This document shows positions 9,697 through 42,659 of a stretch of 42,659 nt of DNA, in pieces. The notes beneath the pieces are model-generated. The model was given only the letters and a program-made list of their open reading frames with translations. It ran no database searches and had not been told where the DNA came from. Every line of letters begins with the position of its first letter. Within the stretch, counting starts at the first letter, position 1. Both the position numbers and the translations under genes were made by a program. Source of the stretch: an uncultured Lentisphaerales bacterium (GTDB taxonomy: Bacteria > Verrucomicrobiota > Kiritimatiellia > RFP12 > UBA3636); the NCBI GenBank assembly GCA_964618405.1, contig CAZUAY010000001.1, forward strand, positions 1-42,659, read 5' to 3'.

Positions 9697-9886
9697 TTCT
9701 CATCGTCTCTTAGGTTACGAAGGCTCTTTTTGTCTGATTAGAAATGCGCAGATGCTAGCACAAGGACATAGGAGAGTCAACTCCGCACTTGACTTGCGTG
9801 GGTAGTTTCTGTAAAAGTATCGGTCGTTCGTTCGGCTTCTTTATAAATCGGGTGGACATTTTAACAATAAGTATTTTGGAGATAAA

Positions 9887-11182
9887 ATGACAGACAAAGA
9901 AGTTGCGGTTCTGAATTACCACCTCGGTGGCAAGGTGTCACTCGGGATGCCGAAAGCGCTGAAGACGGTCGATGATCTCTGCCTCGCTTATACACCAGGC
10001 GTGGCCGTGGCTGTCAAGCAAATCGCTGCCGACCCAGAAAAGGTATTCGACTATACGGCGAAGGGTGGGCTTGTGGCGGTCGTCACGGACGGCACGGCGA
10101 TTCTCGGTCTCGGCGATCTCGGTCCGACCGCCTCGATCCCCGTCATGGAAGGCAAGGCCGTTCTGTTCAAGTCTTTCGCCAATGTCAATTCTTGGCCTGT
10201 GGTTCTCGATCACTGTCGCGAGGGCGGCTTGTCGACAGGACCAACGGATCCGCAACGTATTATCGACGCCGTCATGGCGATCGCTCCGATGTACGGCGGG
10301 ATTAATCTGGAAGATATCGCTTCGCCGGCATGTTTCGAAGTTGAGGATCGGCTGGCAGAGATGTTGGACATCCCAGTTTTTCATGACGACCAGTGGGGCA
10401 CGGCCATCATTGTTCTGGCAGGGACGACAAATTTCGCATGCCTCCGCGGGAGCGAAATGCGCGATCTGAAGGTCGTGATTAACGGAGCAGGGGCAGCCGG
10501 CACGCGGATCCGTGAGATGCTTCTGGCTGGCGGTGTTCGTGACGTTACCATGTGCGATAGCAAGGGTGTGATTTATAAGGGGCGGTCGATTAACAAGGCT
10601 CGTCACGAGCAGGTCGCCGTCGAAACGCCATTCCGAACTCTGGATCAGGTGATGGTTGGTGCCGATGTCTTTATTGGTGTTTCGAAGGCGGACTGTGTGA
10701 AGCCAGAATGGATTGCTTCGATGGCGCCGCATCCAGCGATTTTTGCGCTGGCAAATCCCGATCCTGAGATCTGCTATGAGGCCGTTGCTGAGGTGATGGG
10801 CGACAAGCCGTTCGTGATGGCAACGGGCCGTTCCGACTATCCAAACCAGATCAACAACGTCCTCTGCTTCCCGTTCCTCTTCAGAGGTGCACTCGATGTC
10901 CGAGCTCGCAAGATCACGCCACGCATGAAGGTCGCGGCGGCAGAAGCGCTTGCCCAGGCGGCTCGACGTCCTGCCGGTGCCGAGACGAAGGCGCTGTACC
11001 CAGGGGAGCCGCTGGAGTTCGGTCCGAAGTACATCATCCCGAAACCGTTCGACAAGGATATTTTCGCAGAGGTCTCTCTGGCCGTTGCGAAAACAGCAGT
11101 CGAAGATGGAGTCGCCCGCATCGAGAATTTTGATCCCGTGGCCTACAAGGCAAAGCTTATTGCTGACCGCGCACGTTTCTAA
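9887..11182 (+). CDS. NAD(P)-dependent malic enzyme (short form, no PTA-like domain)
   Basis: 431 aa. N-terminus typical of MaeB-type enzymes (LAYTPGVA), NAD-binding GAGAAG motif, and LANPDPE. Confidence 0.9.
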
Positions 11183-13931: not shown

Positions 13932-13937
13932 AGGCGC

Positions 13938-14020
13938 GAGGAGAAGTCGCTAGGAGAAGTCGCTAGTCGCTAGGAGAAGTCGCTAGTCGCTAGTCGCTAG
14001 TCGCTAGTTGCTAGTAGTGA
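13938..14020. repeat. Heptanucleotide array (GTCGCTA)n with GGAGAA spacers (locus B, part 1)
   Basis: GTCGCTA starts at 13946, 13959, 13966, 13979, 13986, 13993 and 14000. Degenerate copies GTTGCTA and GTAGTGA follow. GGAGAA inserts lie at 13953 and 13973. Confidence 0.9.
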
Positions 14021-14026
14021 CAAACC

Positions 14027-14128
14027 AGCGTCAAAGTATCAAAGCGCCAAGTAGTCAAAGCTGCCCATTTTTTGCTGCGCTGAGGTTGGGCGGTGTGACA
14101 CTTTGATACTTTGTTGCTTTGACGCAGG
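14027..14128. repeat. Imperfect long inverted repeat of TCAAAG words (locus B, part 2)
   Basis: Left arm CAGCGTCAAAGTATCAAAGCGCCAAGTAGTCAAAGC. The right arm GTGACACTTTGATACTTTGTTGCTTTGACGC reverse-complements to GCGTCAAAGCAACAAAGTATCAAAGTGTCAC. Confidence 0.8.
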
Positions 14129-14182
14129 AAAAACTAACGCGGCTCTAGGGCTGGCCCACTCGCAACTTCTTGGTTCGACAGA

Positions 14183-14250
14183 GTTAGCGACAAAGCTAAC
14201 GACAAAGGTTTTTACTAACGACTAGCGACTTCTTGGCAGCGACAAAGGTT
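14183..14250. repeat. CGACAAAG word repeats, 12-bp period (locus B, part 3)
   Basis: CGACAAAG occurs at 14188, 14200 and 14240. It also contains CTAACGACTAGCGACTTCTT, the reverse complement of the AAGAAGTCGCTAGTCG(C/T)TAG-type words in part 1. Confidence 0.85.
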
Positions 14251-14263
14251 TTTCAAACGGGGT

Positions 14264-14372
14264 CTGGGGTGCCCCCCAGCGGAACCTACGCCCTACGCCC
14301 TACTCCCTACTCCCTTCTCTCCAACCTCACAACTCGCAACTCGCAACTCACTACTCGCGACTGTAATCGGGT
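14264..14372. repeat. G4-loop-C4 hairpin followed by a 12-unit in-phase heptad array (locus B, part 4)
   Basis: Hairpin CTGGGG-TGCC-CCCCAG at 14264-14279. In-phase heptads from 14286 read CTACGCC x2, CTACTCC x2, CTTCTCT, CCAACCT, CACAACT, CGCAACT x2, CACTACT, CGCGACT, GTAATCG. Confidence 0.9.
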
Positions 14373-14455
14373 ACTAATTTTTGATGCATTTTTATCCGAA
14401 AAATGGCACAATTAAAGGATTCATGTAACCCCATTCAGCAGAAAAGTAAACATCC

Positions 14456-15679
14456 ATGATTCTTGCAAACTCCCACTTCTCGAAAATCCAAGCTTCTTAT
14501 CTCTTCTCGAACATTGCCGCCAAGGTTAAGGCATTTACAGTTGCCAATCCTACGGCTTCTATCATTAAGCTCGGTATCGGTGACGTGACGCGTGCGCTCC
14601 CTCAGGCTTGTGTGGATGCGATGGCGGCGGCCACGCAGGAGATGGGAGCGGATGATACATTCCGCGGCTATGGTCCCGATTACGGCTACGACTTCCTCCG
14701 CGAGGCGATTGCACGCGTCGACTTCCAGTCACGCGGTGCGGCGATTGATGCCGACGAAATCTTCATCAGTGATGGCGCGAAATGCGATACGGGGAACTTC
14801 CAAGAATTGTTTGCAACGGACGGCATTACGATCGCCGTGCCCGATCCCGTCTATCCCGTTTATGTCGACACGAACGTCATGGCGGGTCGCACAGGCCAAG
14901 CGGTTGACGGACGCTACGAGGGGCTCGTTTATTTAGAATGCAACGAAGCGAATGGATTCTTCCCGGCACTTCCGTCGGAGCAGGTCGACCTCATCTATCT
15001 CTGTTTTCCCAACAATCCGACTGGCGCCACCGCCACCAAGGAACAGCTTAAGCAGTATGTGGATTATGCTCACGCGCACAAGGCGCTGATTCTCTTCGAT
15101 GCGGCGTACGAGGCCTTTATCCGCGACGAATCGCTTCCGCATTCCATCTACGAAATCCCAGGCGCGAAAGAAGTCGCGGTGGAGTTTCGTAGTTTCTCAA
15201 AGACGGCCGGCTTTACGGGAACACGTTGCGCCTACAGCGTGGTTCCCAATGAATGTCGCATTTTTTCCGAAGACGGCTCGCCCGTGCTGCTCGCTCCGCT
15301 CTGGCGTCGCCGGATGAGTACAAAATTCAATGGGGTTTCTTATCCCGTCCAGCGCGCCGCAGAGGCGATCTTCTCGGCTGAAGGACAGAAGCAAGCGACG
15401 GCCTTGATTGATGGCTATCTGGCCAACGCAAAGCACATCCGCGAACGGCTCAATGCCAAGGGATTTAAGACAACAGGAGGCGACAATTCTCCGTATATCT
15501 GGTTCAACACGGGCATGGATTCGTGGGCGTTCTTCGACAAGCTTCTCGCCGAGGCGAACGTGGTGACGACGCCGGGTTCGGGCTTTGGACGTTGTGGAAA
15601 TGGCTACATCCGTATCAGCGCGTTTAATTCGTTCGACAACGTTGTCAAGGCGATGGATCGCATCTGCAAAATTATCTAA
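14456..15679 (+). CDS. dapL: LL-diaminopimelate aminotransferase
   Basis: 407 aa. N-terminus N..F.K...SYLF..I...V is typical of DapL. PLP-lysine context is [15 protein letters not shown]. Confidence 0.88.
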
Positions 15680-15758
15680 TTTTAGCGCCCTAAGAAGACG
15701 AACACAGTTCCGACGCAAGACGGGAAATCACGAAACATCAGTCAACGAGAATTTCACC

Positions 15759-16646
15759 ATGATTATAGACGGGAAGGCCATATCGGCGCAGATTCGATCG
15801 GAAATCGCAATTGAATCCGCGAAACTAGCGGCGGCGGGAATGATTCCGGGCCTTGCCGTGATCCTCGTGGGTGAAAACCCGGCGTCCGTTTCTTATGTTA
15901 CGGCGAAGGAACGCGCCTGCCAAGAAACGGGTATCCGTTCATTTCCCATTCGCATGGGAGTCGAGACAACGCAGGCAGCACTTCTCGCCGAAGTGGCGAG
16001 GTTGAATGCCGACCCTACGGTCCATGGTATTTTGATCCAGTTGCCGCTGCCGAAGCATATCGCGGAGTCGGAAGTCATCACGGCGATTCTCCCTGAAAAG
16101 GACGTGGATGGATTTCATCCCGTGAGTTTGGGTAAACTGTTGCTTGGCGAGGATACGTTTGTTTCCTGCACGCCAGCGGGAATACTCGAACTGCTGAAGC
16201 GCAGTGGGGTTGAGACATCCGGCAAGCACGTCGTGGTCGTTGGCCGCAGCAACATTGTGGGTAAACCCGTTGCGAACTTGCTCTTTCAAAAACGCGCCGG
16301 TGCGAATGCGACGGTTACAATCTGCCATACAGGCACTCCCGACATGGGCGTATTCACACGTCAGGCGGATATTCTTATTGTCGCTGCAGGCCATCCGAAT
16401 ACCGTGACAGCAGACATGGTGAAGCCGGGCGTCGTTGTCATCGACGTTGGCGTGAACCGAATTCAAGATGCTACAAAAAAATCTGGTTTCCGCTTGGTCG
16501 GCGATGTCGATTTCGATGCGGTGGAGCCCATTGCCTCCGCGATTACGCCCGTCCCTGGCGGCGTTGGCCCCATGACCATCGCCATGCTTCTTTCCAACAC
16601 ACTCAAATCGGCTCGCCACTTTAGCGAGCTTCGGAAGAAAGTTTAA
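15759..16646 (+). CDS. folD: Bifunctional methylenetetrahydrofolate dehydrogenase/cyclohydrolase
   Basis: 295 aa from the ATG at 15759 (MIIDGKAIS). Motifs [21 protein letters not shown] and PGGVGPMT. Confidence 0.95.
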
Positions 16647-21417: not shown

Positions 21418-21543
21418 AAATCGGTTTTTTTGTAATTTTTCATTTGAGTTTATCGGAGAATTAAGATAATATCATCCCTAATTCACGGCATACGGGTTTC
21501 CGTGGTCCTTCAAGTAGACTCAAGCAAAGAGGATATAAACGAT

Positions 21544-22170
21544 ATGAAACATGTACACAACAGATTTGCAGCGAGCTTGGCGGCGTGCCTTCTTGCCATG
21601 CTTTCGTCAAGCGGAGTCTACGCTCAGCAGCCAGCTCCGCAGGCGGCGGAAATTCTTCGGATTAAGAGCGTGACCGATCTTGGGCGAGAGTACCAACAGC
21701 GTGCGATAGGCATGGGAGCCAAAACGGCACGGCCTAAGACTTGGGGCGTTTTCGATGTCGTCTTTGATACGGCTCCTCTTTGGATTAATGAGTTGACCAT
21801 CACTTACAGTCTGATGCTGTTCAACGATAAGGCGAATCAGGGTGAGAAGGCTTTGTCGCTTATGAAGCTCACCGTTGAGTATCGAGATATTGCTCAAGGG
21901 CGCGAGCATCGGGCAGGGGTTGTGCTCCCCGCTGTGGCGCTTGAGCGTTATGGAAAGCCGATTGGTTTTGCCGCCCAACTTTTTATTGGCGGCAATCTCG
22001 TCGCTGAATCTGGTGTTGTTGACGGGTCGTTGAGAGGGCAGGAGCGGTGGTGGGCTAATCCCATTGTTATCGACAACCCGCTGGTTGAGAAGCGAGACGG
22101 CTACCTAGTTGAACGATCTAAATCTGTTTTCAGCTTGGTTGACATTGACAGTTACGAGGCAGGCCGATAG
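21544..22170 (+). CDS. Secreted hypothetical protein, first gene of the pilus-like cluster (positional equivalent of Amuc_1102)
   Basis: 208 aa from the ATG at 21544. Sec signal peptide (AACLLAMLSSSGVYAQQ). Its stop overlaps the start of the PilM-like gene. Confidence 0.75.
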   Translation: MKHVHNRFAASLAACLLAMLSSSGVYAQQPAPQAAEILRIKSVTDLGREYQQRAIGMGAKTARPKTWGVFDVVFDTAPLWINELTITYSLMLFNDKANQGEKALSLMKLTVEYRDIAQGREHRAGVVLPAVALERYGKPIGFAAQLFIGGNLVAESGVVDGSLRGQERWWANPIVIDNPLVEKRDGYLVERSKSVFSLVDIDSYEAGR

Positions 22171-23858
22171 TGTTTGCAAAAGATAGAATCCTTACGCTAG
22201 ACATCGGTGTAAGCAAGATCGTCCTTGGGGAGTTTTTAGTAAAGAATTCCTCCATGCCGATTCTTACTCGTTTTGTCGTACGCCCATCCAATCCGTTTGC
22301 AGCGGAAGCCGGCATTCCAACGATGGAATCGATAGCGGATCTCATCCGAGAGATGACGCTAGAAGGCGGTATCAAGGCGGCTCCACTTTACGTTATGCTT
22401 TCTGGGCAGGCGATTTTCCCCCGGTTTGTGAAGTTGCCGCCAGTTTCGTCTGACAAGATTGATGAGATGCTTCGATATGAAGCTTCTGAGAATCTCCCTT
22501 TCCCGATTGAAGAGGTTGTCTGGGATTATCAAGTTGTGTCTGCTGATGACGAGACCGAGCTTGACGCGCTCATTGTCGCGACCAAAGGTGAGACGGCGCA
22601 AGATGCGGCCGCGTGCGCTGAAAGGGCTGGGCTGCAATTAGCGATGGTCGATGCGATGCCGTTCGCCCTCTACAATTGCATCCGCTTTAATTCGTCTGAC
22701 AATGGAAAGTGCACGATGTTGCTCGATATCGGTGCACGTTCGACTGATCTTGTTTTCGTTGAAGGCAGTAAGATTTTTACTCGAAGCATTTCCGTTGCTG
22801 GCAATACGATCACAAACGAGATTGCTCGAAGTCTCGCTGTCTCCCCTGAAGAAGCAGAGAGGATCAAGAAAGATATCGGTTTCGTTGCTCTAGGTGGAAC
22901 CTACGCTGTAGTGGATGACGAAACGGCAGACAAGGTTTCTAAAATTATCCGGAATGTGGCCACGCGTCTCCATTCCGAGGTAAACCGATCTGTGAACTTC
23001 TATCGTAGCCAGCAAGGTGGGTCAGCTCCTGAAAAGTTGTTTTTAACAGGCGGTGCGGCACTGACCCGGCACATGGACACGTTTTTCCGCGAGAAGCTAG
23101 GGGTTGAGGTCGAATACCTAAATCCGTTTGCCAATGTAGCGGTTGCACCGGAACTTCAAGGCGAGACGGAAGCTCTTTTCCTCATGGCACCGTCGGTTGG
23201 GCTGGCCTTACGGGGAAGCATGAAGTGTCCCATCGAGATTAACTTAATGCCTCCAGCGGTACTCGCCTATCAGCGGTTTGCTAAGCGTATTCCGTTCTTC
23301 GCCGTATCGGTTGTAGGACTTATTCTGACACTATTGTGTTGGTTCTCGTATGCGAAAAATCTTCAGTCTGCTTACACGTCTCAGCACGAAATGGTCAAGC
23401 ATAGGCTTGACGAGCGTACCCGGTACCAACGGCAGATCGACACGGTCAACGTTAGCAGTAAAGCGCTAGAGGAAAAGATAAACTACATGTCGGCCCTGGT
23501 TGCGTCTCGAGCTTCGATCCCAGAGGCACTTTCTGCCGTTCGTGAAGCCATGATCAAGGACACCTGGTTGACGAGCATGACCTTCGACAAGGAAGATGAT
23601 AACGCAGCGTACATGAATCTCGTCGTTTGTGGGTTTAAGAGGGAACTCGACGAGAAGGTGACCAATAAATCTGCTGGCGAATTGCTCTTAGCCAATTTGC
23701 TTGAGTTGAAGGATCTGTTTCTGAAAGAGGGTTCTAGAGTCGAGCAAGAACGCTCGATCGAAAATGATCGGCTCAGTGAGCTTCATATCCGGCTGAAGCT
23801 CTCCAAGAAACTTGGGGCCATTGACGAAAATAGCCTGGCGGAGACGGCCACGAAATGA
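22170..23858 (+). CDS. PilM-like actin-fold ATPase fused to a PilN-like TM/coiled-coil segment (Amuc_1101-type)
   Basis: 562 aa. PilM/FtsA-like motifs LTLDIGVSKIV, MLLDIGARSTDLVFV and SVAGNTITNEIA. This is followed by a TM helix (FFAVSVVGLILTLLCWFSY) and a coiled-coil region. Confidence 0.85.
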   Translation: MFAKDRILTLDIGVSKIVLGEFLVKNSSMPILTRFVVRPSNPFAAEAGIPTMESIADLIREMTLEGGIKAAPLYVMLSGQAIFPRFVKLPPVSSDKIDEMLRYEASENLPFPIEEVVWDYQVVSADDETELDALIVATKGETAQDAAACAERAGLQLAMVDAMPFALYNCIRFNSSDNGKCTMLLDIGARSTDLVFVEGSKIFTRSISVAGNTITNEIARSLAVSPEEAERIKKDIGFVALGGTYAVVDDETADKVSKIIRNVATRLHSEVNRSVNFYRSQQGGSAPEKLFLTGGAALTRHMDTFFREKLGVEVEYLNPFANVAVAPELQGETEALFLMAPSVGLALRGSMKCPIEINLMPPAVLAYQRFAKRIPFFAVSVVGLILTLLCWFSYAKNLQSAYTSQHEMVKHRLDERTRYQRQIDTVNVSSKALEEKINYMSALVASRASIPEALSAVREAMIKDTWLTSMTFDKEDDNAAYMNLVVCGFKRELDEKVTNKSAGELLLANLLELKDLFLKEGSRVEQERSIENDRLSELHIRLKLSKKLGAIDENSLAETATK

Positions 23859-24850
23859 GTAAACAACGGACCTATTTACTAATCGGCGCGGCGGTGTCAG
23901 GCATTCTTGTTCTCGTCACGGCGGGAATTACGGCTACTGGCATCAATAAAGCCACCGCGCTTCGGGACGAGATGAAGAGTTCGTATTCGAAGCTCGAAAA
24001 TTTCTTCAAAAAAAATCCGTTTCCCAGCGCTGAAAACGTTGCGACCGAGGAAAAAAACTTAGATTTATTGAAAGAACGCTATGCCACGCTCATGAAGGAA
24101 CTCTCGAAGAATGAAGTGGTTGTCAAAGGTGTCCATACGCCTGGAAGTTTCTCAAAGACATGCGAAGAAACGGTTAATGCTCTTCGTAAAGATGCGCCAC
24201 AGGGAGCCGGCGATGCGTCGGTTATTGTCCCAGGATTTAATTTCGGATTTCAAAGGTATGACATCTCTAAAGAGGGAAAGCCTGCTGATCAGAAGAATGT
24301 CTCTCGGCTTTTATGTCAGCTTCGGATGACGGATATGCTAGTCCGCTTTTTCTACGATGCTGGGATCCTTAAACTTGACAGTGTTCTCCGAGAAGAATTT
24401 GACGCAGCGTCTGACGATACGGGAGCATCAAGAGGGCGAGGCAGGGTAGGCAGAGGCAGATCCGCGAGTTCGAGTTCAAGTGATGTTACCCTCGACAAGA
24501 TTGAAGAAGAACCTATTTTGGACGCTCCCTTTGCATTGGATCGGCAACGTTTCGGTTTCGTTTTCCTTGCCAAGGAGTCCGCCCTTTTCTCTTTAATGGA
24601 TAAAATTAACTCGATGTGGCCCTTTGCGCAGATTTCCAATTTTGAGTTTATAAAGAACGGCAAAGATGTCATTTTCCCTTTGAGTGCGGGTGAGGTAGCA
24701 GCAGCCACTGAAGTGGCGGGCATTATTAAACCGCCTGCAGGAGTTACGACCCGAATTGTTTCAGGTGCACTGCGAGAAGCTCCTGTCAAAGTAATCATGA
24801 CGATTGACATTTACACCTTCGGAGCCGAGAAAGACGAAGAACCCGAGTGA
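23855..24850 (+). CDS. Amuc_1100-family pilus-like protein (PilO-like topology)
   Basis: 331 aa with an ATGA start/stop overlap to the upstream gene. It has an N-terminal TM helix, a coiled-coil and an acidic C-terminus (..IDIYTFGAEKDEEPE). This layout matches Akkermansia Amuc_1100 as I recall it. Confidence 0.75.
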   Translation: MSKQRTYLLIGAAVSGILVLVTAGITATGINKATALRDEMKSSYSKLENFFKKNPFPSAENVATEEKNLDLLKERYATLMKELSKNEVVVKGVHTPGSFSKTCEETVNALRKDAPQGAGDASVIVPGFNFGFQRYDISKEGKPADQKNVSRLLCQLRMTDMLVRFFYDAGILKLDSVLREEFDAASDDTGASRGRGRVGRGRSASSSSSDVTLDKIEEEPILDAPFALDRQRFGFVFLAKESALFSLMDKINSMWPFAQISNFEFIKNGKDVIFPLSAGEVAAATEVAGIIKPPAGVTTRIVSGALREAPVKVIMTIDIYTFGAEKDEEPE

Positions 24851-25963: not shown

Positions 25964-28900
25964 ATGAAAGTAATCAAGGCGTGTAGTATAGGTGTTGCTG
26001 TCGCAACAGTTTTGTGTGCAGCATATTCATTTGGCCAGAGCCAGAAGGCGATTCTAAACGCCAAACAGCTTGGAATCGAGGATCTAGATTTGGATCTAGG
26101 CCTTGAGGAGGACTTGGTGGTGCCAGCAAAGCCTGCCGACACGGTTTCCTCAGGTGTGGAAGTCTCACCGGCAGATGAAACCGTCACGGACGCATCGGCT
26201 TCGGAAGCCACGGAGGAAACGGTTCGGCAGGTAAGTGATGGGAAGGCTGAGGCTCCTTCTGTGGATAACATTGAGGAAACAAATGGAGCCGTTGTTGAAG
26301 ACCCTGTAGTCGACTCCGTACTTGGAGATCCCGTTGTCGATGCCGTTCTTGAAAATCCTGCCACGGTTGTCGAGCCAGCGGTGGACACACCTGCCACTAA
26401 TAATGGCTCGCTGCAAATCAAGGATCTCTTGGATCAGGCTGACATTGACGAACCTGTTGCCGTTGTCGAAACCGCTGACGAGCCTGTTGCCGTTGTCGAA
26501 ACCGCTGACGAGCCTGTTGCTGTTGTCGAAACCGCTGACGAGCCTGTTGCTGTTGTCGAAACCGCTGACGAACCCGTTGCCGTTGTCGAAACCGCTGACG
26601 AGCCTGTTGCCGTTGTCGAAACCGCTGACGAACCCGTTGCCGTTGTCGAAACCGCTGACGAACCTGTTGCCGTTGTCGAAACCGCTGACGAGCCTGTTGC
26701 TGTTGTCGAAGCCGCTGATGAGCCTGTTGCTGTTGTCGAACCCTTAGTTGTGGAAGTAGAAGCTCCTGTACCGACTAGCGAAGACGTGGCCGTTTCGGAG
26801 CTCGCGACGCTTGAAAACGCTCGTCGCCGATTGTTTGAGCAGCACGGGCGTGATTCCTTGGCACAAGGACAGACCGCCTTGCTGACAGGCAACTGGGATC
26901 GCTCTGCGGATAAGTTCAAAGAAGCCCTGAAGTTCCTTGTTGAAAAGGATACAACAATTCCGCTCCGCAAAGAGGCTGAAGCGGGTCTTGCTGAAGCTTA
27001 TTATCGCAAGGCACTTGAGCTGAGATCGATTAATAACTTGGAAGAATCGTTGAAGTCGGCGCGCGAGGCCAGAATTTATCAGCATCCGAAAGCAGAGAAA
27101 CTCATTACCGCGATCCAAGATCAGCAAGAGAATCCCCCCCCGCCCCCTCCGCCGAAGCATGAGCGTCGATGGAACCAGCTTGAGTACCAAAACAACGTCG
27201 TCGATATCAATGCGCGCATGAAGATCGCCAAGGAATACTATGCGACGGACGAACTCGCCAAATGCCGCGAGCAGGTCGAACTGATTCTTCGCGAATATCC
27301 GTGGTATGAAGATGCCGTAAATATGCTCCGCAAGATTAACATAGCCGAACACAAGTATGTGGACAACGAACGTTTGACGGCTCGTGAGTTGATGATGAAG
27401 GATGTGACAAAGGCGTGGGCTCCTCGTAACTACGGGATTGATTTTTCCGCTGGCCCTGAGAAGCTTCCGGCTGACCCAACAAATCCATCCGGTCTTGGGG
27501 GGACGGCCGAAATGAAGATTCTTGATAAGATGCGCAGTATTACGATTCCTGAAATTGACTTCCGGCAGGCTAACATTACCGACGTTGTGACTTTCCTTAG
27601 CGAAGCGTCTCGCGAGCACGACCGTCAGGATATTCCGCCCGAGGAACGTGGCGTAAACATCGTTCTCAACCTTGGTGGCACTGTGGACGCACCTGCGGCG
27701 GCCGCGACCGCGGATGATCCCTGGGCCGCTGCTGTTTCAGCTCCCGCTGCCTCTTCCGGAAACGTTCCTCCGTTAACCATCAACGCTCGATTCTTGACGA
27801 TGCTGAGTGCCCTTGAAATGATTATGGATTTGGCTGATCTTAAGTATCGAGTCCGCGACAATGTTGTGCTGATTATGGAAGCGAACAAGCCCGATGGGCA
27901 ATTGATTCATCGCATGTACAATGTACTGCCTAGCATTAATGAACGCGTGGTTTCGATCGCCGGAACAAGCGGGAATGCTGGAGCTGCCGCGAACCCATTT
28001 GGTAACGCTATTGCGGGTGGTGAAACAACGGAAACAACCGACTGGAAGAAGTTCTTCGGCGATCTCGGCGTCAATTGGCCCGATGGATCGACTGTCCAGT
28101 ACATGTCGTCGATTGGAAAGATGGTTGTTTTGAACACCTCCAAAAACCTTTCGACCCTCGAAGAAGTTCTCGCTGTTCTTAACGTGACACCGAAGCAAGT
28201 TGAAATCGAAGTCAGATTCGTTGAAGTCGGCCAGTCTGATCTTGATTCGCTCGGGTTCGAATGGACGCTTAATGACGACTGGGAAATGGCGGAAATGAAA
28301 GCTGACGCCAATCTTCCGCCCGCTGCGCGTCGCCGCGTCACCATGGGTGCTGGCTCCGTGACCAGGGGCTTCAACTACCTCAGCAACAACAACTCTAAGG
28401 ACATCAACGATGGCTCATCTGTCATGGACAATGTCGCGACGTTCACGTCAATTCTGACGAATCCTGAGCTTTCTGTTGTGCTTCACATGCTCTCTTCGAA
28501 GCAGAATACCGATCTTCTTTCGGCGCCGAAAGTCGTTGCACAGGCTGGTGTTAAGGCGACCATTAAGGTGGTAACAGAATACATCTATCCAACGGAATAC
28601 GATGTGGAAATGTTGGAATCAACCAGTGGCAATAGCGATACCACAACCTACAGCGGTGCGGTTGTTGAGCCCCAAAACTTTACGATGCGTGAAGTCGGTG
28701 TTATTCTTGAGGTGACACCCGAAGTGACTCCGGATGGATCGATGATCAACCTCAGTCTTACACCGTCTGTTGTCTCCGAACCAACATGGAAGAACTATGG
28801 TTCAACCTATCCGGTTTCGACTGCTACGGGGACTGATCTTCTCGGTAACCAGACCTACCAGACTGAATATGTGCAACTTCCAATGGAGCAGCCATTCTTT

Positions 28901-29173
28901 CCAGTCCGTTCGCTTGCAACCAGCGTTCAGATCTACAACGGGGCAACGGTCGTGATGGGTGGGATGATTACTGAACAACGCTACACGAACGAAGACAAGA
29001 TTCCGTTCCTAGGCGACATCCCGATTCTCGGACAATTTTTCCGAAACAAGTATGAGCTCAGCGAAAAGCGCAATTTGTTGCTCTTCGTTACCGCCCGTCT
29101 TGTTGATCCGGCCGGCCGCGAAGTCAAAGAATCTGCTGCTAATGCGGTTTCATTGCTGGGAACTGGAATGTAG
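25964..29173 (+). CDS. Secretin-family outer-membrane channel (PilQ/GspD-like, Amuc_1098-type) with a long repetitive acidic N-terminal region
   Basis: 1069 aa. RBS AAGGAG lies upstream and the protein has a signal peptide. The C-terminal secretin domain shows DLLSAPKVV, VGVILEVTPEV.PDG.I.L, IPFLGDIPILGQFF and LLLFVTARLV. Confidence 0.9.
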   Translation: MKVIKACSIGVAVATVLCAAYSFGQSQKAILNAKQLGIEDLDLDLGLEEDLVVPAKPADTVSSGVEVSPADETVTDASASEATEETVRQVSDGKAEAPSVDNIEETNGAVVEDPVVDSVLGDPVVDAVLENPATVVEPAVDTPATNNGSLQIKDLLDQADIDEPVAVVETADEPVAVVETADEPVAVVETADEPVAVVETADEPVAVVETADEPVAVVETADEPVAVVETADEPVAVVETADEPVAVVEAADEPVAVVEPLVVEVEAPVPTSEDVAVSELATLENARRRLFEQHGRDSLAQGQTALLTGNWDRSADKFKEALKFLVEKDTTIPLRKEAEAGLAEAYYRKALELRSINNLEESLKSAREARIYQHPKAEKLITAIQDQQENPPPPPPPKHERRWNQLEYQNNVVDINARMKIAKEYYATDELAKCREQVELILREYPWYEDAVNMLRKINIAEHKYVDNERLTARELMMKDVTKAWAPRNYGIDFSAGPEKLPADPTNPSGLGGTAEMKILDKMRSITIPEIDFRQANITDVVTFLSEASREHDRQDIPPEERGVNIVLNLGGTVDAPAAAATADDPWAAAVSAPAASSGNVPPLTINARFLTMLSALEMIMDLADLKYRVRDNVVLIMEANKPDGQLIHRMYNVLPSINERVVSIAGTSGNAGAAANPFGNAIAGGETTETTDWKKFFGDLGVNWPDGSTVQYMSSIGKMVVLNTSKNLSTLEEVLAVLNVTPKQVEIEVRFVEVGQSDLDSLGFEWTLNDDWEMAEMKADANLPPAARRRVTMGAGSVTRGFNYLSNNNSKDINDGSSVMDNVATFTSILTNPELSVVLHMLSSKQNTDLLSAPKVVAQAGVKATIKVVTEYIYPTEYDVEMLESTSGNSDTTTYSGAVVEPQNFTMREVGVILEVTPEVTPDGSMINLSLTPSVVSEPTWKNYGSTYPVSTATGTDLLGNQTYQTEYVQLPMEQPFFPVRSLATSVQIYNGATVVMGGMITEQRYTNEDKIPFLGDIPILGQFFRNKYELSEKRNLLLFVTARLVDPAGREVKESAANAVSLLGTGM
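26447..26740 (+). repeat. In-frame 30-bp tandem repeat, about 10 copies, encoding (DEPVAVVETA)n
   Basis: Units start every 30 bp from 26447 to 26717. Across the first eight units the only variation is synonymous (GAA/GAG, CCT/CCC, GCC/GCT). The last two also carry GCC for ACC (Thr to Ala) at 26711-26713 and a synonymous GAC/GAT change, and the array then ends in CCC (Pro) at 26741-26743. Confidence 0.95.
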
Positions 29174-30855: not shown

Positions 30856-30863
30856 TTCAGAAA

Positions 30864-30896
30864 AGTCGCGAGTTGCTAGTGGCTCGTCGCGAGTAA
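30864..30896. repeat. Short heptad repeat (locus C) between convergent genes
   Basis: AGTCGCG AGTTGCT AGTGGCT CGTCGCG AGTAATT. These use the same AGTNGCN words as loci A, B and E. Confidence 0.7.
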
Positions 30897-36605: not shown

Positions 36606-36632
36606 GTGCATGGGTGAACGGGGTGCAACTTG
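36606..36632 (+). repeat. REP-like unit upstream of the RAYT gene
   Basis: GTGCATGGGTGAACGGGGTGCAACTTG matches the GGTGCAACTTGCGCATGGGTGAGCGG units that are repeated downstream of the gene. Confidence 0.65.
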
Positions 36633-36696
36633 TTGGTTGATGGAACTGTGGGGTTTTGCTTGCAGTGCATTTTGAAGCGTAGTAGAATGCGGCAGT

Positions 36697-36740
36697 GTTG
36701 CAAAGCAAGTTGCATCAAGGCTGTTTACAGCCGCATCGCG
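36697..36740 (+). repeat. 44-bp direct repeat, copy 1 (5' leader of the RAYT gene)
   Basis: GTTGCAAAGCAAGTTGCATCAAGGCTGTTTACAGCCGCATCGCG. My manual alignment gives 37 of 44 identities with 37845-37888. It contains the hairpin GGCTG-TTTA-CAGCC. Confidence 0.75.
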
Positions 36741-36752
36741 AAGGAGGGAAAA

Positions 36753-37682
36753 ATGGAGCACAAGCTGCAAGGAATACGCAGCCAGTACCAAGACTACCGC
36801 GAGCCCAGCTTTTACATGGTAACGATGGCGACGTGGCAGCGGGTGCCGTTGCTCGCCACTTGCCATGCTAACACCTCATTTCCAACGGAGGACGGGCGGC
36901 TCGTCGAGGCGCTTTGGCGAGACATTCCCCGAACGTACCCGCAAGTGGAGGTTTCCACTTTTGTGCTCATGCCAGATCATTTTCACGGTATTGTCCGCGT
37001 GAAGGCGCACATGGAGAAGCCGTTGGGCGTACCGCTCAGGGCATTTAAATCTCAGGCGACAGGTGCCATCCGAAGGCGTCATGGCAATGAGACGATGGCG
37101 GTATGGACACCCGGTTACCACGATCTTTGCGTCTGGCGTCGTGGCTCTCTGGCGGCGTATACGAAATACATCCGCGACAACCCTCGGCGCTATTGCATGA
37201 AGAAGGCCGAACCTGAGTTGTTTACGCGCGAGAACAACTTGCGCCATGTGCGCTTGCCGGCGTCAGAGACTTGGGCAGGCTATGGCAATTTGTTTTTGCT
37301 TGATCGACCCGAAATGAGTTGCATTCAAATATCGCGGCGAGCATCAGAAGGTGAAATTGCAGAAACGAAGCGTTGTGTGTTGGCGGAGGTTGTACGTGGC
37401 GTGGTGGTAGTGTCTCCCTTCATTTCCCTGGGAGAGAAAGAAGTCGCAAGGGCTGTGCTAGAGAGCAAACGCGGAGATGTCATCTTGATGAAGCCAGAGG
37501 GATTCGGTCCGTATTTCAAGCCGCATGGGCACTACTTCGACCTTTGCGCACAAGGGCGCCTGCTGATTCTGGCGTGTCGCCCACCTGTTGAGGTGAAGAC
37601 CCCACTCACGCGGGATATGTGCCTCAGCATGAACGCATGGTGCAAGGCCCTTGTAGAAGGCGATGTGCTGGACCGCCTGTAA
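36753..37682 (+). CDS. REP-associated tyrosine transposase (RAYT / IS200-like Y1 HUH) with an additional C-terminal domain
   Basis: 309 aa from the ATG at 36753, preceded by the RBS AAGGAGGG. HUH motif MPDHFHGIV, then W.PGYHD and the catalytic-Tyr context YTKYIRDNPRR. Residues ~165-309 lie beyond the usual Y1 domain. Confidence 0.85.
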   Translation: MEHKLQGIRSQYQDYREPSFYMVTMATWQRVPLLATCHANTSFPTEDGRLVEALWRDIPRTYPQVEVSTFVLMPDHFHGIVRVKAHMEKPLGVPLRAFKSQATGAIRRRHGNETMAVWTPGYHDLCVWRRGSLAAYTKYIRDNPRRYCMKKAEPELFTRENNLRHVRLPASETWAGYGNLFLLDRPEMSCIQISRRASEGEIAETKRCVLAEVVRGVVVVSPFISLGEKEVARAVLESKRGDVILMKPEGFGPYFKPHGHYFDLCAQGRLLILACRPPVEVKTPLTRDMCLSMNAWCKALVEGDVLDRL

Positions 37683-37690
37683 ACAGGTGG

Positions 37691-37817
37691 GGTGCAACTT
37701 GCGCATGAGGGAGTGGGTGAGCACGGTTCCTATTGCATCGCCCGGCGTATCCCACGGTGCAACTTGCGCATGGGTGAGCGGGGTAGCCTGAGGCGGGGTG
37801 CAACGTGCGCATGAGGG
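37691..37817 (+). repeat. Three direct REP-like units downstream of the RAYT gene
   Basis: GGTGCAAC(T/G)TGCGCATG(A)GG starts at 37691, 37756 and 37797. Each holds a small palindromic core, TGCAA.TTGCG. Confidence 0.8.
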
Positions 37818-37844
37818 AGCAGGGTGGCGAGGTGTAGGAGCGTG

Positions 37845-37888
37845 GGTGCAAGGCGAGTCGCATCGAGCCTGTTTAGAGCCGCATCGCG
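37845..37888 (+). repeat. 44-bp direct repeat, copy 2
   Basis: GGTGCAAGGCGAGTCGCATCGAGCCTGTTTAGAGCCGCATCGCG, the partner of 36697-36740. Confidence 0.75.
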
Positions 37889-37945
37889 CGGATGGCGTGT
37901 AGCCAGAAAACGGCAAAAAAATTGGAAAAAACAGCTGCGAAGCTT

Positions 37946-38070
37946 GTAATCGGTCAGTGACGGGGGGGCCGTTCCCCGATGCCCATCTGGATGGGACCCT
38001 GTCGGCTCTTTCGCAGGAGCAGTACTCGCGACCAGCCACTCGCAACTCGCGACCGACTACCGCCTTCGCC
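37946..38070. repeat. Mosaic intergenic repeat locus D
   Basis: GTAATCGGTCAG at 37946-37957, G-run/C-run hairpins, and CCCATC-TG-GATGGG. Heptads from about 38023 read ACTCGCG ACCAGCC ACTCGCA ACTCGCG ACCGACT ACCGCCT. Confidence 0.7.
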
Positions 38071-39553: not shown

Positions 39554-41977
39554 ATGAGCAAGTCTCCCCTCTCTTCCCGAGTCATCCGGCAAAGCCTTGA
39601 TTCGTTTTATAAAGCGAACGTCTTGTGGGCGGTATATGGCATTTGCACCTACGGCGCGCTTTATACCGGCATGCTACTTTCGCTCGGCATGAGCCAAGCA
39701 CAGATCGGCTTAATCATGGCGGTGCCGATGGTTACGCTACCCGTGCAAATTATCGGTGCTGTTTTGCAGCAACGCTATTTCAACCGAAAGCGGTTTTGGG
39801 TTACGGCACTGAGCTTCTTTATCCTGATGTTCGCCTTGATGGTTCTTCTCATCGCAATCTGGCCTGTGCTGCCACCAACGGCAGCAGTTCCGCTTTTTGC
39901 TGGCGTTTTGATTTTGTCTTATATTGGATTCCAGCTTCATCGTCCGGTGCAGCTCGCTTGGCAGACGGACATCGTGCCGGATCGCGACGTGAGCATGTTC
40001 TGGAACCGGCTCACGGCGCAGGGGATGGTCGCCAGTGTGGCCGCCGGTTTCGTCATGGGCTGGATTGCTGATAAGCTGGGACGCGACAACCGGTTGACCT
40101 TTGTGTACATCTTTGGGTTTAGTCTCATTTTTGCAGCGATGTCGCTGAGGATGAACTCGCGGGTTCCCGATCCCGATCCCGATCCCGGCGCCGAGGAGGG
40201 CATCCTCGTGAGTATCATGACGGTGCTGAAAAACAGCAACTTCCGAAGACTATCGGCCATTTTTTCAATTCAGTCGATGTCGGCATGGCTTTTCGCCGCC
40301 TTTATCTTTGTACACCTCCAGCGCGTCATGGGATTCACGATGGTGCAGATGCAGATTCTTGCGGGTGTCAGTTGCACGGTCAGTTTCGCGTCCGGTCGCC
40401 TCTTCGGAATCGTGGGCAAGCATTACGGGCGTAAACCGGTCTTGCTAATCTGCACGCTTGTAAAAAGTGTGGAGATTTTCTTGTGGGGGATCATGCGCCC
40501 AGGCGATCATTGGCTCGACCTGGCGGTTCGACAGGCGACCACCTCACTCGTGGGCGAATGGGCGACCTTGCCGACTGGGTTTGCCAGTGTCATTCCGGTT
40601 TTTATTCTAGCCGGTTTCGTTAATGTTGGCATTGCCTCGATGCAACTTGCGTTTATGCGGAATATCGGAACGCGGCACAACCAGACGCTTGCTATCAGCC
40701 TGTTTCTTTCGCTGTCTGGCGTCGTGGGCGGTGTCTCGGCGGCTATGAGCGGATGGTTCTTTAACCTGCTCGCCACGCCTGGATTTGGTCCGGATAGCCT
40801 CCGACGGTTGGCAGGGGGCTTCGGATTGACGCCGTTCAACATCTTGGCCCTTGCCAGTGCGGTCGGCTATGCGACCTGCGCGTTTTTCATTCGTTTCTTG
40901 CGCGAGGATGGTGCGGCACCGACGATGCACGTGGTGCGAATGCTTCTTGCCAACAATCCCGTGCGGGGCGTCTACCACGCCCAGTCTCTGGGCAACTCGC
41001 TTACGGAAGCCACACGGATGAATATCCTCAGCCATGCTCGTGGTGGACTGGTCGAGAGTGAGCTCGTGCGCGGTCTCTACAGTTGCTCTTCGCAGGTGCG
41101 TGATGGGGCCATGCGAAACCTTGCCAGTATGGGAGCCGAGATGGAGACGGCCGTGGCGGAGGAGCTTGTCAAGCTATTGGCCATGCCCGAGCTTGGCCTC
41201 CAAATCGAAGCAGCCAAGGCTCTGGGCCGTAGCCGCTACAAGCCTGCACTTCCTCAACTGACCGCTTTTTTTGATAATGAGGATGCTAATCTCGCCGTTG
41301 CGTCGATCTATGCCGTGGGGCTGATCGGCGATAAGTCAGTACTACGAGATCTCCGGCGCATACTTGAACTCGAGGACACGCTTCCAGTGGCGAAGGCACA
41401 AGCGGCCGAATCGTTGAGTCGGCTCTGCGACCCTAGCGACGCGAGACTCATTTTCTCCGCGTTTACGCAAAACACCAATCCTGTGCTCCTAACCCAGTCG
41501 TTGGTGTCGATTTGCCGTTGCATGGAGGACGGACCCCATGTTTACAAGGTGTTCGAGGCAGAGTTTCGAAATCCAGGAACGCTCACCGTTTCGCTTTTCG
41601 AATCCATTGCCCAGCGGTGGCAGGGTCTGGACATTGACACCATGGTCGATAGCCTCGACGGGGGGCGCTTCCATGAAGTTGCGACCTCGGCGATTTCGCC
41701 TGCACTTGAGTTTTGTCTACCCTGCGTCCGCTCGCCCGATATTCTGCCGACGCCTTTTCTTCAATCGCAGTTTCTTGAGAATGGAAGTTTTAAGGACGAT
41801 AGGCTAGAGGGTGGCGACTACGTTGCCACGAGCTTGTGGCTTCAGCTCAGGCTTTGGGCCTATCTTGAATACGCCGAGGGGGATCAAGATCGGTTTGTCC
41901 TGCTAACAATTCTTTTCCTTTGTGATCGCCTTGCTAAACGACTCGACCCTAAACATCCGCGTACACGTCCAGGATAG
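39554..41977 (+). CDS. MFS transporter fused to a C-terminal HEAT-repeat domain
   Basis: 807 aa. The first ~450 aa contain about 12 hydrophobic helices. The last ~330 aa are soluble with HEAT/PBS-lyase-like repeats (VRDGAMRNLASMG...; LQIEAAKALGRSRYKPALPQL...; NLAVASIYAVGLIGDKSVLRDL...; AKAQAAESLSRL). Confidence 0.8.
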   Translation: MSKSPLSSRVIRQSLDSFYKANVLWAVYGICTYGALYTGMLLSLGMSQAQIGLIMAVPMVTLPVQIIGAVLQQRYFNRKRFWVTALSFFILMFALMVLLIAIWPVLPPTAAVPLFAGVLILSYIGFQLHRPVQLAWQTDIVPDRDVSMFWNRLTAQGMVASVAAGFVMGWIADKLGRDNRLTFVYIFGFSLIFAAMSLRMNSRVPDPDPDPGAEEGILVSIMTVLKNSNFRRLSAIFSIQSMSAWLFAAFIFVHLQRVMGFTMVQMQILAGVSCTVSFASGRLFGIVGKHYGRKPVLLICTLVKSVEIFLWGIMRPGDHWLDLAVRQATTSLVGEWATLPTGFASVIPVFILAGFVNVGIASMQLAFMRNIGTRHNQTLAISLFLSLSGVVGGVSAAMSGWFFNLLATPGFGPDSLRRLAGGFGLTPFNILALASAVGYATCAFFIRFLREDGAAPTMHVVRMLLANNPVRGVYHAQSLGNSLTEATRMNILSHARGGLVESELVRGLYSCSSQVRDGAMRNLASMGAEMETAVAEELVKLLAMPELGLQIEAAKALGRSRYKPALPQLTAFFDNEDANLAVASIYAVGLIGDKSVLRDLRRILELEDTLPVAKAQAAESLSRLCDPSDARLIFSAFTQNTNPVLLTQSLVSICRCMEDGPHVYKVFEAEFRNPGTLTVSLFESIAQRWQGLDIDTMVDSLDGGRFHEVATSAISPALEFCLPCVRSPDILPTPFLQSQFLENGSFKDDRLEGGDYVATSLWLQLRLWAYLEYAEGDQDRFVLLTILFLCDRLAKRLDPKHPRTRPG

Positions 41978-41985
41978 TATTTTTC

Positions 41986-42025
41986 GTAATCGGTCAGGCA
42001 CAGGGGGCTGTGCCTGACCGATTAC
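41986..42025. repeat. Perfect 18-bp-arm palindrome immediately after the MFS-HEAT stop codon
   Basis: GTAATCGGTCAGGCACAG-GGGG-CTGTGCCTGACCGATTAC. The arm holds the 12-mer CTGACCGATTAC that is also found at loci A, B, D and E. There is no U-tract. Confidence 0.9.
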
Positions 42026-42395
42026 AGTCGCTAGTCGCTAGTGGCTAGTCGCTAGCACTGATCGCGGACGATTCCGGCCTCACCGAGGCCAGCCACAGGG
42101 GAGAAGTAGCGAGAAGTTGCGAGTTGCGAGTAGTGAGTTGCGAGTTGGTTACTCTTCGCTGAGCTAACGGAGAGGGGACTTTCTTGTCCCCCATTCGCAC
42201 GGGGACAGGACAGGAATGTCTCCGCTCCTGTGAGATTCGACAAAGGTAGCGACAAAGTTAGCGACAAAGTCCTCACGGCTCGCCCCAGTCTCGCCCCCAA
42301 AGGTAGAAACGGGGCATGGGGTGTCCCCATCGGAAACTACTCCCTACTCCCTACGCCCTGCTCCCATCTCTTCTTCACTGACCGATTACCATTTT
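42026..42395. repeat. Mosaic intergenic repeat locus E
   Basis: AGTCGCT heptads at 42026-42056. The 47-bp module at 42059-42105. GAGAAGTTGCGAGTTGCGAG... at 42111-42146. Hairpin GGGGAC-TTTCTT-GTCCCC at 42174-42191. CGACAAAG at a 12-bp period (42238, 42250, 42262). Hairpin ATGGGG-TGT-CCCCAT at 42316-42330. CTACTCC/CTACGCC heptads at 42337-42364. CTGACCGATTAC at 42378-42389. Confidence 0.85.
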
Positions 42396-42507
42396 TTTCT
42401 TTTTCACCCCTTGTCTATCAGATGCCGTTGTGGTAATATTCGTGACTCGTCTGGTACTAGGTTCTGGCCTATCCTTTGCGCCAAGGCTCCAAACAGGAAC
42501 GCACATC

Positions 42508-42659
42508 ATGATCAACTTTAACAAATCTAAAGATTTTTACCGCTTAGCGTTTGCGGTATGTTTTGTATTGGCGCTCATTTCAAGTTCGTTTATCGGTGCT
42601 GCACAGGGAGCGATTCCCGATGCGGTTCCTGTGTTTCCGACGGCCGCTTTTAGCCAATT
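42508..42659 (+). CDS. Partial CDS (5' end only): secreted protein with a signal peptide
   Basis: ATG at 42508, open to the window edge. It reads MINFNKSKDFYRLAFAVCFVLALISSSFIGAAQG..., which looks like a Sec signal peptide. Confidence 0.45.
   Translation, partial: MINFNKSKDFYRLAFAVCFVLALISSSFIGAAQGAIPDAVPVFPTAAFSQ

Follow-up and report, generated by a model that had tools for sequence, protein, structure and literature searches.

Several kinds of small repeats have been described in the intergenic DNA of bacteria. Bacterial interspersed mosaic elements (BIMEs) and repetitive extragenic palindromes (REPs), which occur with REP-associated tyrosine transposases (RAYTs) in Enterobacteria and Pseudomonas, are extragenic mosaics of palindromic and non-palindromic motifs. 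Intervening sequences of 23S ribosomal RNA (rRNA) carry a PF05635 (S23p) open reading frame (ORF) between inverted repeats. Miniature inverted-repeat transposable elements (MITEs), including derivatives of IS66 insertion sequences (IS) with an ISBst12-like organization, are short, lack a transposase, have ends that match terminal inverted repeats (TIRs) beginning GTAA, duplicate about 8 bp, and lie in intergenic DNA where a relative has an empty site. These MITE features recur, the duplication as an imperfect candidate, in locus E, the 404-bp subject of this report, which is part of a 42,659-nt stretch of DNA from an uncultured Lentisphaerales bacterium (contig CAZUAY010000001.1; the whole stretch is called the window hereafter). 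ISDge4, an experimentally active element of the IS66 family, has TIRs that begin GTAAC/GTGAC and makes an 8-bp direct repeat (PMC12898284). In addition, intergenic heptad repeats were reported with the unit TAACTGA in Beggiatoaceae, Cyanobacteria and Bacteroidetes (PMC4679880), and with the unit GGGAATC in Xanthomonas and Nostoc (PMC4692102).

A first-pass annotation of the window had recognized that locus E uses the modules of two other loci, A and B, and had taken the pattern as a BIME-like mosaic to which small modules were added by repeated insertion or recombination, and not as the copy of one whole element. The comparison presented herein bears this out only in part. E is probably one non-autonomous, MITE-like element with IS66-family TIRs, which was inserted in a T-rich target with about 8 bp duplicated, and whose cargo is a mosaic of pooled repeats that includes a solo cassette-end array.

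Results

Locus E and the corresponding site in relatives

By its gene content and close homologs, the window is assigned to a Lentisphaerales bacterium of the Planctomycetes-Verrucomicrobia-Chlamydiae (PVC) superphylum. Its LL-diaminopimelate aminotransferase (dapL) is 96% identical to the copy in the metagenome-assembled genome (MAG) CAZKJH01 (GCA_964553035.1, 'uncultured Lentisphaerales'), and remoter homologs bear the names Lentisphaerae or Kiritimatiellia. About 1.3 Mb of fetched loci, designated by L numbers, served as the relatives' sequence. Tandem repeats were called with TRF, and the gene context of arrays was read with a codon log-likelihood gene caller in place of a longest-ORF rule.

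All three loci, A (1-290), B (13932-14371) and E (41986-42389), lie between genes. E comprises 403-404 nt of non-coding DNA bounded by GTAATCGGTCAG...CTGACCGATTAC; the only ORFs that overlap it are short (92 aa or less), with no credible gene among them. Its parts and immediate flanks are as follows.

41978-41985, plus strand: left copy of the candidate target duplication, TATTTTTC, adjoining the TAG stop codon (41975-41977) of the MFS-HEAT gene
41986-42025, no strand: fused-TIR palindrome GTAATCGGTCAGGCACAG-GGGG-CTGTGCCTGACCGATTAC with a perfect 18-bp stem, its left arm being the left end of E
42026-42056, plus strand: G-rich heptads (AGTCGCT)x4.3 (TRF), starting at the outer end of the inner TIR
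42059-42105, plus strand: 47-nt module TGATCGCGGAC GATTCC GGCCTC-ACC-GAGGCC A GCCACAGG GGAGAA, the 3' part of a 64-nt module of locus A
42101-42150, plus strand: G-rich heptads of the GAGAAGT/AGTTGCG/AGTAGTG family (TRF)
42151-42237, plus strand: spacer with small hairpins, e.g., GGGGAC-TTTCTT-GTCCCC at 42174-42191
42238-42269, plus strand: solo triple array (CGACAAAG-N4)x3
42307-42340, plus strand: hairpin module AAACGGGG-CATGGGG-TGT-CCCCAT-CGGAAACTAC, the reverse complement of which begins GTAG
42337-42365, plus strand: C-rich heptads (CTACTCC/CTACGCC)x4.1 (TRF)
42375-42389, plus strand: right end of E, TCACTGACCGATTAC, the outer 15 nt of an IS66-type TIR
42390-42397, plus strand: right copy of the candidate target duplication, CATTTTTT, followed by a leader that is kept in relatives up to the ATG at 42509

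The orthologous site is empty in the closest relative, L189 (CAZKJH010000085.1), whose MFS-HEAT protein is 86% identical in amino acid sequence to that of the window. There, the TAG of the MFS-HEAT gene is directly followed by CATTTTATTCTTTTCACCCCTTGTCTATG, with the junction TAG|CATTTTATTC; the junctions in the window read TAG TATTTTTC|GTAATCGG...404 nt...CCGATTAC|CATTTTTTTCTTTTTCACCCCTTGTCTATC. When L189 was compared with the window by blastn, two high-scoring segment pairs were obtained, one ending at 41983 and the next starting at 42387, and 9 query bases of L189 were used by both, i.e., they map to either side of E. Deleting E together with one flanking 8-mer restores the sequence of the relative, and homology resumes within 3 nt of the right end of E. 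(The breakpoints were taken from blastn; MAFFT misplaced the left flank over the large gap.) A second relative, L188, likewise lacks E. Because E is absent as a whole from L189, with breakpoints at both IS66-type ends and an apparent duplication of the target, what happened last at this site is, as far as sequence comparison can tell, the gain of one bounded element or its loss in the relative. For this last step, the assertion that no element was copied as a whole is contradicted by this absence of all of E, with breaks at the TIRs.

That the mosaic was assembled in place by repeated recombination or insertion of small modules, without any transfer of a whole element, is unlikely in view of these junctions. 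L189 lacks all 403 nt at once, the breaks coincide with two transposon ends, and the target appears to be duplicated; for the mosaic to have grown in place, each module would have had to arrive after the two lineages split, and exactly between those two ends. On the other hand, the modules are found separately and in other combinations, the module content differs between B and E, and orthologous intergenic sites of relatives hold different mosaics; to that extent, the earlier view of a mosaic drawn from a common pool stands. Moreover, the interior of E must somewhere have been built by such steps. Such differing mosaics are held by L190 and L186. At the site of E, L190 carries, 35 nt after the stop codon, a triple array CTTTGTCG in the opposite orientation, which is an independent mosaic. 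Upstream of dapL, where the window has B, L186 (JAXDEL01) holds different repeats, namely three copies of GGCGTGCTCGGAGAGCCCGCCCTACC and ATTCCAT heptads at 4300-4520. On the opposite strand, this 26-mer GGCGTGCTCGGAGAGCCCGCCCTACC is a GTAG-tagged, REP-like imperfect palindrome.

Ends of the IS66 type

The 12-mer CTGACCGATTAC has five exact copies in the window (254+, 37946-, 41986-, 42014+ and 42378+), where about 0.005 would be expected by chance for exact 12-mers. When an extended motif, CCCCNGTCNCTGACCGATTAC, was scanned against metagenome contigs, 68 stretches were recovered. Beyond ...GATTAC these are unrelated to each other, and the motif is thus the end of an element. Inverted copies bound elements of 1.5-2.0 kb in L145 (1990-3483), L127 (300-2318) and L126 (76-2073). 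The large ORF of L127 encodes an IS66-family DDE transposase (PF03050, E 1.3e-33; zf-IS66), and a small DUF6788 ORF precedes the transposase ORF in the full-length element. The TIR consensus of the full-length IS66-family elements, GTAATCGGTCAGTGACAGGGG, begins GTAA, like one TIR of ISDge4, and the left arm of E matches it at 19 of 21 positions. The whole palindrome at 41986-42025 folds at -22 kcal/mol (z = -12). As the ends of E match the TIRs of transposase-carrying elements, E is MITE-like; among the marks of such elements, presence/absence polymorphism with precise boundaries (empty in L189; absent in L188), small size without a transposase gene (404 bp) and ends that match the TIRs of an autonomous IS family were found for E. 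A tblastn search with the transposase of the metagenome element found no IS66 transposase in the window, and its five copies of CTGACCGATTAC are therefore solo or fused ends.

Homology to relatives also breaks at the TIR of a further locus, D, and near a TIR remnant in B, which argues that the unit gained or lost is bounded by IS66-type ends. Furthermore, A (265/266), E and seven Ga0172378 contigs all have the junction GATTAC|AGTCGC(T/G), which B has in reverse complement (14362/14363), so that AGTCGCN heptads repeatedly abut the outer end of an IS66-type TIR. IS66-type ends also occur without heptads, and an AGTCGCT heptad lies inside the TIR of A (CCCC-AGTCGCT-GACCGATTAC). A short version, in the order palindrome, AGTCGCT heptads, 60-nt spacer, complementary heptads and palindrome, is present in L154 from a related metagenome.

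The area beside the transposon end at 37946 is, judging from the gene content of relatives, a rearrangement hot spot. Between the RAYT-like and MFS-HEAT genes, the window has an FAD oxidoreductase, L190 has a beta-lactamase and an FAD oxidoreductase, and L189 has neither gene. In L188, a beta-lactamase gene precedes the MFS-HEAT gene, and the locus lacks a RAYT-like gene.

Modules shared with loci A and B

The modules named in the first-pass annotation are present in A, B and E at or near their annotated positions, far above chance. The parts of A, B and D that bear on the comparison are the following.

24-55, minus strand: solo triple array of A, reverse-complemented
110-129, plus strand: G-rich heptads of A, GAGAAGTTGTGAGTTGCGAG
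137-200, plus strand: complete 64-nt module of A, CCTGTAGCC-(CCGCGATC-GGT-GATCGCGG)-AC-GATTCC-(GGCCTC-GCC-GAGGCC)-A-GCCACAGG-GGAGAA
217-284, plus strand: degenerate TIR palindrome of A (ATGATCGGTCAAT ... CCCCAGTCGCTGACCGATTAC) at 217-265, then AGTCGCG heptads at 266-284
13932-14020, plus strand: G-rich heptads and 13/20-nt tracts of B (GGAGAAGTCGCT, AGTCGCT), starting at the MatE stop codon
14176-14207, plus strand: triple array of B, first unit CGACAGAG, with an extra single unit at 14240-14247
14255-14362, plus strand: hairpin module of B at 14255-14292, then C-rich heptads
14363-14371, plus strand: 9-nt IS66-type TIR remnant of B, GTAATCGGG; homology to L184, which is the dapL leader, starts 6 nt on, at 14378
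37946-37966, minus strand: IS66-type TIR of D (CCCCCGTCACTGACCGATTAC on the minus strand), where homology to L189 (43-225) stops exactly

The 12-bp-period array had been described as forward in B and E and reverse-complemented in A, the (GAGTTGC)n module as reverse-complemented in B, and a hairpin with CGGAA(A/C)CTAC..CC heptads as common to B and E; each of these descriptions holds. The AGTTGCG heptads of E (42115-42147) belong to the tract at 42101-42150, the inverted complement of which, 85-96% complementary, lies in B at 14326-14362 as CTCGCAA units. AGTCGCT occurs in B as well (13958-14015), and the C-rich heptads of B comprise CTACGCC/CTACTCC (CTACNCC) at 14285-14319 and CTCGCAA, the complement of AGTTGCG, at 14326-14362. 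Locus E had also been thought to run in the same orientation as A, with the order of its modules reversed. The orientation was borne out; the swap is mostly apparent, since AGTTGCG and AGTCGCG/T differ by one base and both belong to one AGTNGNN family, so that A and E both read heptads, module, heptads. The two loci do differ in where the IS66-type end sits, and in where the 12-nt array sits and which way it points.

The 47-nt module has copies at 154-200 and 42059-42105 (two matches to its 40-nt core vs. none expected in shuffles), and the extended copies are 90% identical across 60 nt. No match to it was found in the metagenome contigs. A related copy of the 64-nt module in the relative L019 is identical in its left part (28/28 nt) and has a different second hairpin; the predicted fold of the module, two hairpins and a closing stem, is not significant (z = -1.5). 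The GGGG-loop-CCCC hairpin with CGGAA(A/C)CTAC (14259 and 42311) belongs to a family of 11 copies from the window, Lentisphaerales and Kiritimatiellia, in which the loop is variable and C-rich heptads follow the hairpin in 11 of 11 cases. The stem is CTGGGG/CCCCAG in most copies and ATGGGG/CCCCAT in E, a compensatory change, and the fold of the E module is thermodynamically weak (z = -1.5). Hairpin modules also occur without arrays, and 12-nt arrays without hairpins. No copy of the spacer at 42151-42237 was found elsewhere.

The cargo of E is, by its parts, a true mosaic of AGTNGNN heptads, the 47-nt piece, the hairpin with C-rich heptads and the triple array, repeat types that are each widespread in the lineage. 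The modules common to A, B and E are explained by their construction from the same pool with the same loose architecture. One polarity recurs, i.e., G-rich heptads, array, hairpin, C-rich heptads; together with the repeated TIR/heptad junction, it indicates that module shuffling is not free.

B also contains, at 14025-14135, an imperfect palindrome of (G/A)TCAAAG units (GTCAAAGTATCAAAG...GTCAAAG / CTTTGATACTTTGTTGCTTTGAC), a variant of the CAAAG theme in (+,-) order with a long-hairpin fold.

The triple array and PF05635 genes

The array of E consists of three units, CGACAAAGGTAG CGACAAAGTTAG CGACAAAG, with an invariant 8-mer and T at unit position 10. In the window, CGACAAAG-N4 arrays gave six overlapping matches vs. 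none in 100 shuffles, and when one genome per species was scanned for exact matches, more than 114 array loci came up. Among the matches listed (114 records), 80 are labelled PVC (Lentisphaerae, Victivallales, Kiritimatiellae, Verrucomicrobia, Akkermansia, Pirellulaceae and Tepidisphaerales), 27 are unlabelled and seven bear other labels, some of these being coding repeats. Among the same matches, 125 of 145 arrays are intergenic, 136 of 141 have exactly three units, and their orientation relative to co-directional genes is unbiased (31 vs. 27). The unit consensus is CGACAAAG-N-T-Y-R. The near-constant number of three units speaks against simple slippage and in favor of a fixed binding architecture. 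In viral contigs, which served as a negative control, 17 of 19 array matches are coding repeats such as DDKD or ATKP.

Wherever arrays form inverted pairs, the order is always (-) then (+). Akkermansia muciniphila, which is in culture, has such pairs (L033, L061). Double-domain PF05635 genes of about 260 aa are enclosed by such pairs in L038, L050 and L069, as (-)array...gene...(+)array, with the upstream array 9-17 nt before the ATG, the downstream array 7 nt past the stop codon, and extra array units in the inter-domain linker; the cassette measures about 0.9 kb. A protein search returned 420 homologs, most of them on contigs of about 1 kb. When contigs were fetched by protein identity as an unbiased test, the same geometry was found in four of four (L210, L215, L216 and L218), with decay of one side in two of them. 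Thus, the triple array is, on present comparisons, the terminal repeat of a PVC-wide cassette that encodes a double PF05635 four-helix-bundle protein. The majority of arrays lack the gene and are found solo or in inverted pairs. A tblastn search found no PF05635 homolog in the window, and E, A and B each hold one array; their arrays would be solo cassette ends at most.

Like the intervening sequences of 23S rRNA, the PVC cassette has a PF05635 gene within inverted repeats, and is dispersed and multi-copy; the PF05635 family found in both has no known enzymatic activity. It differs from them in its two fused PF05635 domains, in inverted repeats made of triple 12-nt arrays with an invariant 8-mer, and in being flanked by protein-coding genes at each of the loci examined (a check that did not extend to rRNA genes). 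PF05635 is also homologous to Avd of diversity-generating retroelements (PMC10053308). Literature searches for the array motif and for PVC repeats returned no description, and the association of arrays with PF05635 appears undescribed in the literature searched.

Three other roles for the array were considered and rejected. A regulon operator was rejected as the neighbor genes show no regulon: among 195 of them, no family is enriched apart from PF05635 (3) and AAA_14/DUF4143 ATPases (5). An RNA element was rejected as arrays favor neither orientation relative to genes and show no structure on folding. A full-length IS with arrays as its ends was not found; L111 holds two palindromic copies around an ordinary gene. 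The AAA_14 and DUF4143 ATPase genes adjoin triple arrays in L023, L045, L072, L074 and L103, with the array on the 5' side in four. In the verrucomicrobial MAGs L031, L107, L113, L011 and L111, (-,+) array pairs lie inside a palindromic element of about 150 nt, whose outer inverted repeats, TTAGAGCCTGTCCCAAAAG / CTTTTGGGACAGGCGCTAA, form a shell unlike that in the lineage of the window.

Heptads and flanking genes

TRF reported five period-7 arrays in B and E, with more in relatives, and period 7 dominates the tandem repeats of 114 PVC loci among the array matches listed. Heptads number 1.12 per kb where an array lies within 150 nt, against 0.59 per kb in intergenic DNA elsewhere and 0.04 per kb in coding DNA. 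With three or more tandem 7-nt units and this restriction to non-coding DNA, they resemble the short tandemly repeated repetitive (STRR) sequences of cyanobacteria. Like STRR, TAACTGA and GGGAATC repeats, the PVC heptads are intergenic tandem units, often beside start codons, which vary in unit sequence and copy number. They differ in phylum, in their units (AGTNGNN and many more), in their strand polarity relative to genes, and in their association with IS66-type ends and 12-nt arrays. No description of heptad repeats in PVC bacteria was found in the literature searched. Loci C (30862-30895) and D (38023-38053) are further heptad tracts, 94% complementary over 31 nt, and the tract of C sits between convergent genes.

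Within 30 nt upstream of gene starts, the coding strand carries C-rich heptads in 14 cases and G-rich ones in two, and within 30 nt after gene ends, G-rich heptads in 19 and C-rich ones in seven; B and E share this polarity. It would be explained if the repeats were selected regulatory sequences at the mRNA or promoter of flanking genes (for example, G-poor unstructured leaders, Rho or RNase sites, or tunable spacers), their modularity then reflecting shared function and not mobility. C-rich heptads reach the start codon in L100, L057 and L062, in two of them after a hairpin module, and E and B each immediately precede a leader that relatives have conserved. Nonetheless, E is dispensable, as L189 keeps the downstream leader and gene without it, and the array shows no such preference for strand. 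A scan of 41900-42659 passed no promoter- or terminator-like sites, and Rfam gave no match above noise in a gathering-threshold scan of the window or in permissive scans of B and E. On balance, a regulatory origin is improbable, even more so than assembly in place. The candidate TTGTCT-17-TAATAT in E matches a promoter at only eight of 12 positions and was not relied on.

The RAYT-like gene

The window contains a RAYT-like Y1 transposase gene with an HUH motif (36753-37682, plus strand, 309 aa), which matches the NCBIfam model REP_Tyr_transpos with E 5.5e-14 and 52 bits, under the cut-off of 80. Its flanks (36620-36752 and 37670-37900) carry hairpin repeats of their own, CCGCCTGTRAACAGGCGG-GGTGCAACTTGCG; a 29-nt inverted repeat (36705-36733 / 37674-37702) and three copies of GGTGCAACTTGCGCATGAGGGAG lie around the gene. 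The L190 ortholog, 83% identical in amino acid sequence and in the same synteny, keeps these hairpin repeats in its flanks and has three to four copies of CCGCCTGTGAACAGGCGGGGTGCAACT on each side. Since none of the modules of E is among the repeats of this gene, membership in REPs or BIMEs is not supported, and the RAYT was dropped as a driver of these modules because its flanking repeats differ. A tblastn search of the RAYT-like protein against all array loci gave no match, a negative that is uninformative because RAYTs are single-copy.

There is some likeness to BIMEs and REPs, in that E too is an extragenic mosaic of palindromic and non-palindromic motifs, the hairpin module and the 64-nt module carry GTAG beside a palindrome and a RAYT-like gene is present in the window. 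However, no cognate RAYT flanked by the same REPs was found, nor were high-copy, alternating imperfect palindromes of 20-40 nt tagged with GT(A/G)G, the hairpin occurring once per locus, in one orientation and with a weak fold. E has no alternating REP pairs, and its unit of mobility is set by DDE-transposon ends. The term BIME-like thus applies by analogy only.

Assembly and other features of the window

Public assemblies break in the repeats. The one same-strain contig, L001, identical to the window, starts (1-30) inside the heptad tract of B, whereas the first bases of L184 (1-105) and L185 lie some 160-180 nt upstream of dapL, next to the site of B. Such breaks might suggest that the mosaic is an artefact, i.e., that reads containing repeats were joined into a chimera. 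On the contrary, an independent Logan assembly agrees with the window at 100% identity over 14342-16307, including the edge of B, the same module junctions recur in unrelated assemblies, and the flanks of E align cleanly to relatives on both sides; an artefact is accordingly very hard to credit.

The G+C content is about 53% across the window, with local dips to 0.42 at 2001-3000 and 0.46 at 9001-10000 against a background of about 0.53. Three genes at 21502-24850 correspond, by synteny with L184, to the Amuc_1102, PilM/FtsA-like and Amuc_1100 families (Pfam names), a pilus-like cluster known from Akkermansia. The ORF at 25964-29173 (1069 aa) has an internal 30-nt tandem repeat at 26446-26740 (9.8 copies, 94% matching), a coding repeat of 10 residues per unit.

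Discussion

If E is a MITE-like element with IS66-family ends, an IS66-family transposase encoded elsewhere in the genome would mobilize it in trans. The enzyme would act on the fused-TIR palindrome at its outer left end and on the solo right end 400 bp away, carrying the DNA between them, and the element would have been inserted between the MFS-HEAT stop codon and the conserved leader of the next gene. The heptad tracts would lengthen or shorten by replication slippage, and the other modules may stem from local duplication or from nested insertions at an earlier time. The triple arrays may be protein-binding sites, possibly for the PF05635 protein; these functions of the modules are ones that we infer.

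Several points weigh against this account. The candidate target duplication, TATTTTTC vs. CATTTTTT, is imperfect, with identity at six of eight positions, and no clear target duplication was seen at the three full-length IS66-type copies inspected. The right end of E agrees with the outer 15 nt of the TIR only, and the cognate transposase would lie elsewhere in the source genome, the sequence searched being the window. Precise excision from the relatives may be an alternative to gain in this lineage. A second full-length E was not found in the window or in the approximately 1.3 Mb of relatives' loci, where matches are at module level only (60 nt or less), and E is therefore not shown as a multi-copy MITE family; typical MITEs differ in this respect, and E differs from them further in that one of its ends is a fused TIR-TIR palindrome and its interior is a patchwork of other repeat families, not a deleted IS. 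As for its cargo, the gene-less inverted pairs of arrays have variable spacers, some of zero length, and thus are not simple deletion derivatives of the cassette, whose mobility, like the binding of arrays by its protein, is putative.

On the MITE-like reading, an odd repeat mosaic becomes a testable object: E is bounded, its ends and the family of the transposase are known, and there is an empty site. The role of PF05635 has so far been clear only within diversity-generating retroelements, and an exactly conserved 8-mer array tied to PF05635 proteins offers them a concrete DNA or RNA partner. Because MAG contigs of this strain and its relatives end in or beside the repeats, the mosaics fragment MAGs and are under-represented there, and such repeat-broken short-read assemblies affect gene-context analyses.

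A wider, more tentative possibility, to which we give less than even weight, is that the array is the terminal repeat of an undescribed PVC-wide cassette family which, together with gene-less pairs, solo ends, heptads and IS66-derived ends, forms a long-lived system that shapes intergenic DNA, with the PF05635 protein as the array-binding factor and the cassette a mobile unit or, like an intervening sequence, one that is removed at the RNA level. Such a system would range over Lentisphaerota, Kiritimatiellota, Verrucomicrobiota (including Akkermansia) and some Planctomycetota. The comparison itself shows that the intergenic DNA of the under-studied PVC superphylum, which includes gut Akkermansia, is built from a small vocabulary of repeats with rules, heptads being the dominant tandem repeats and polar in strand relative to gene ends and starts.

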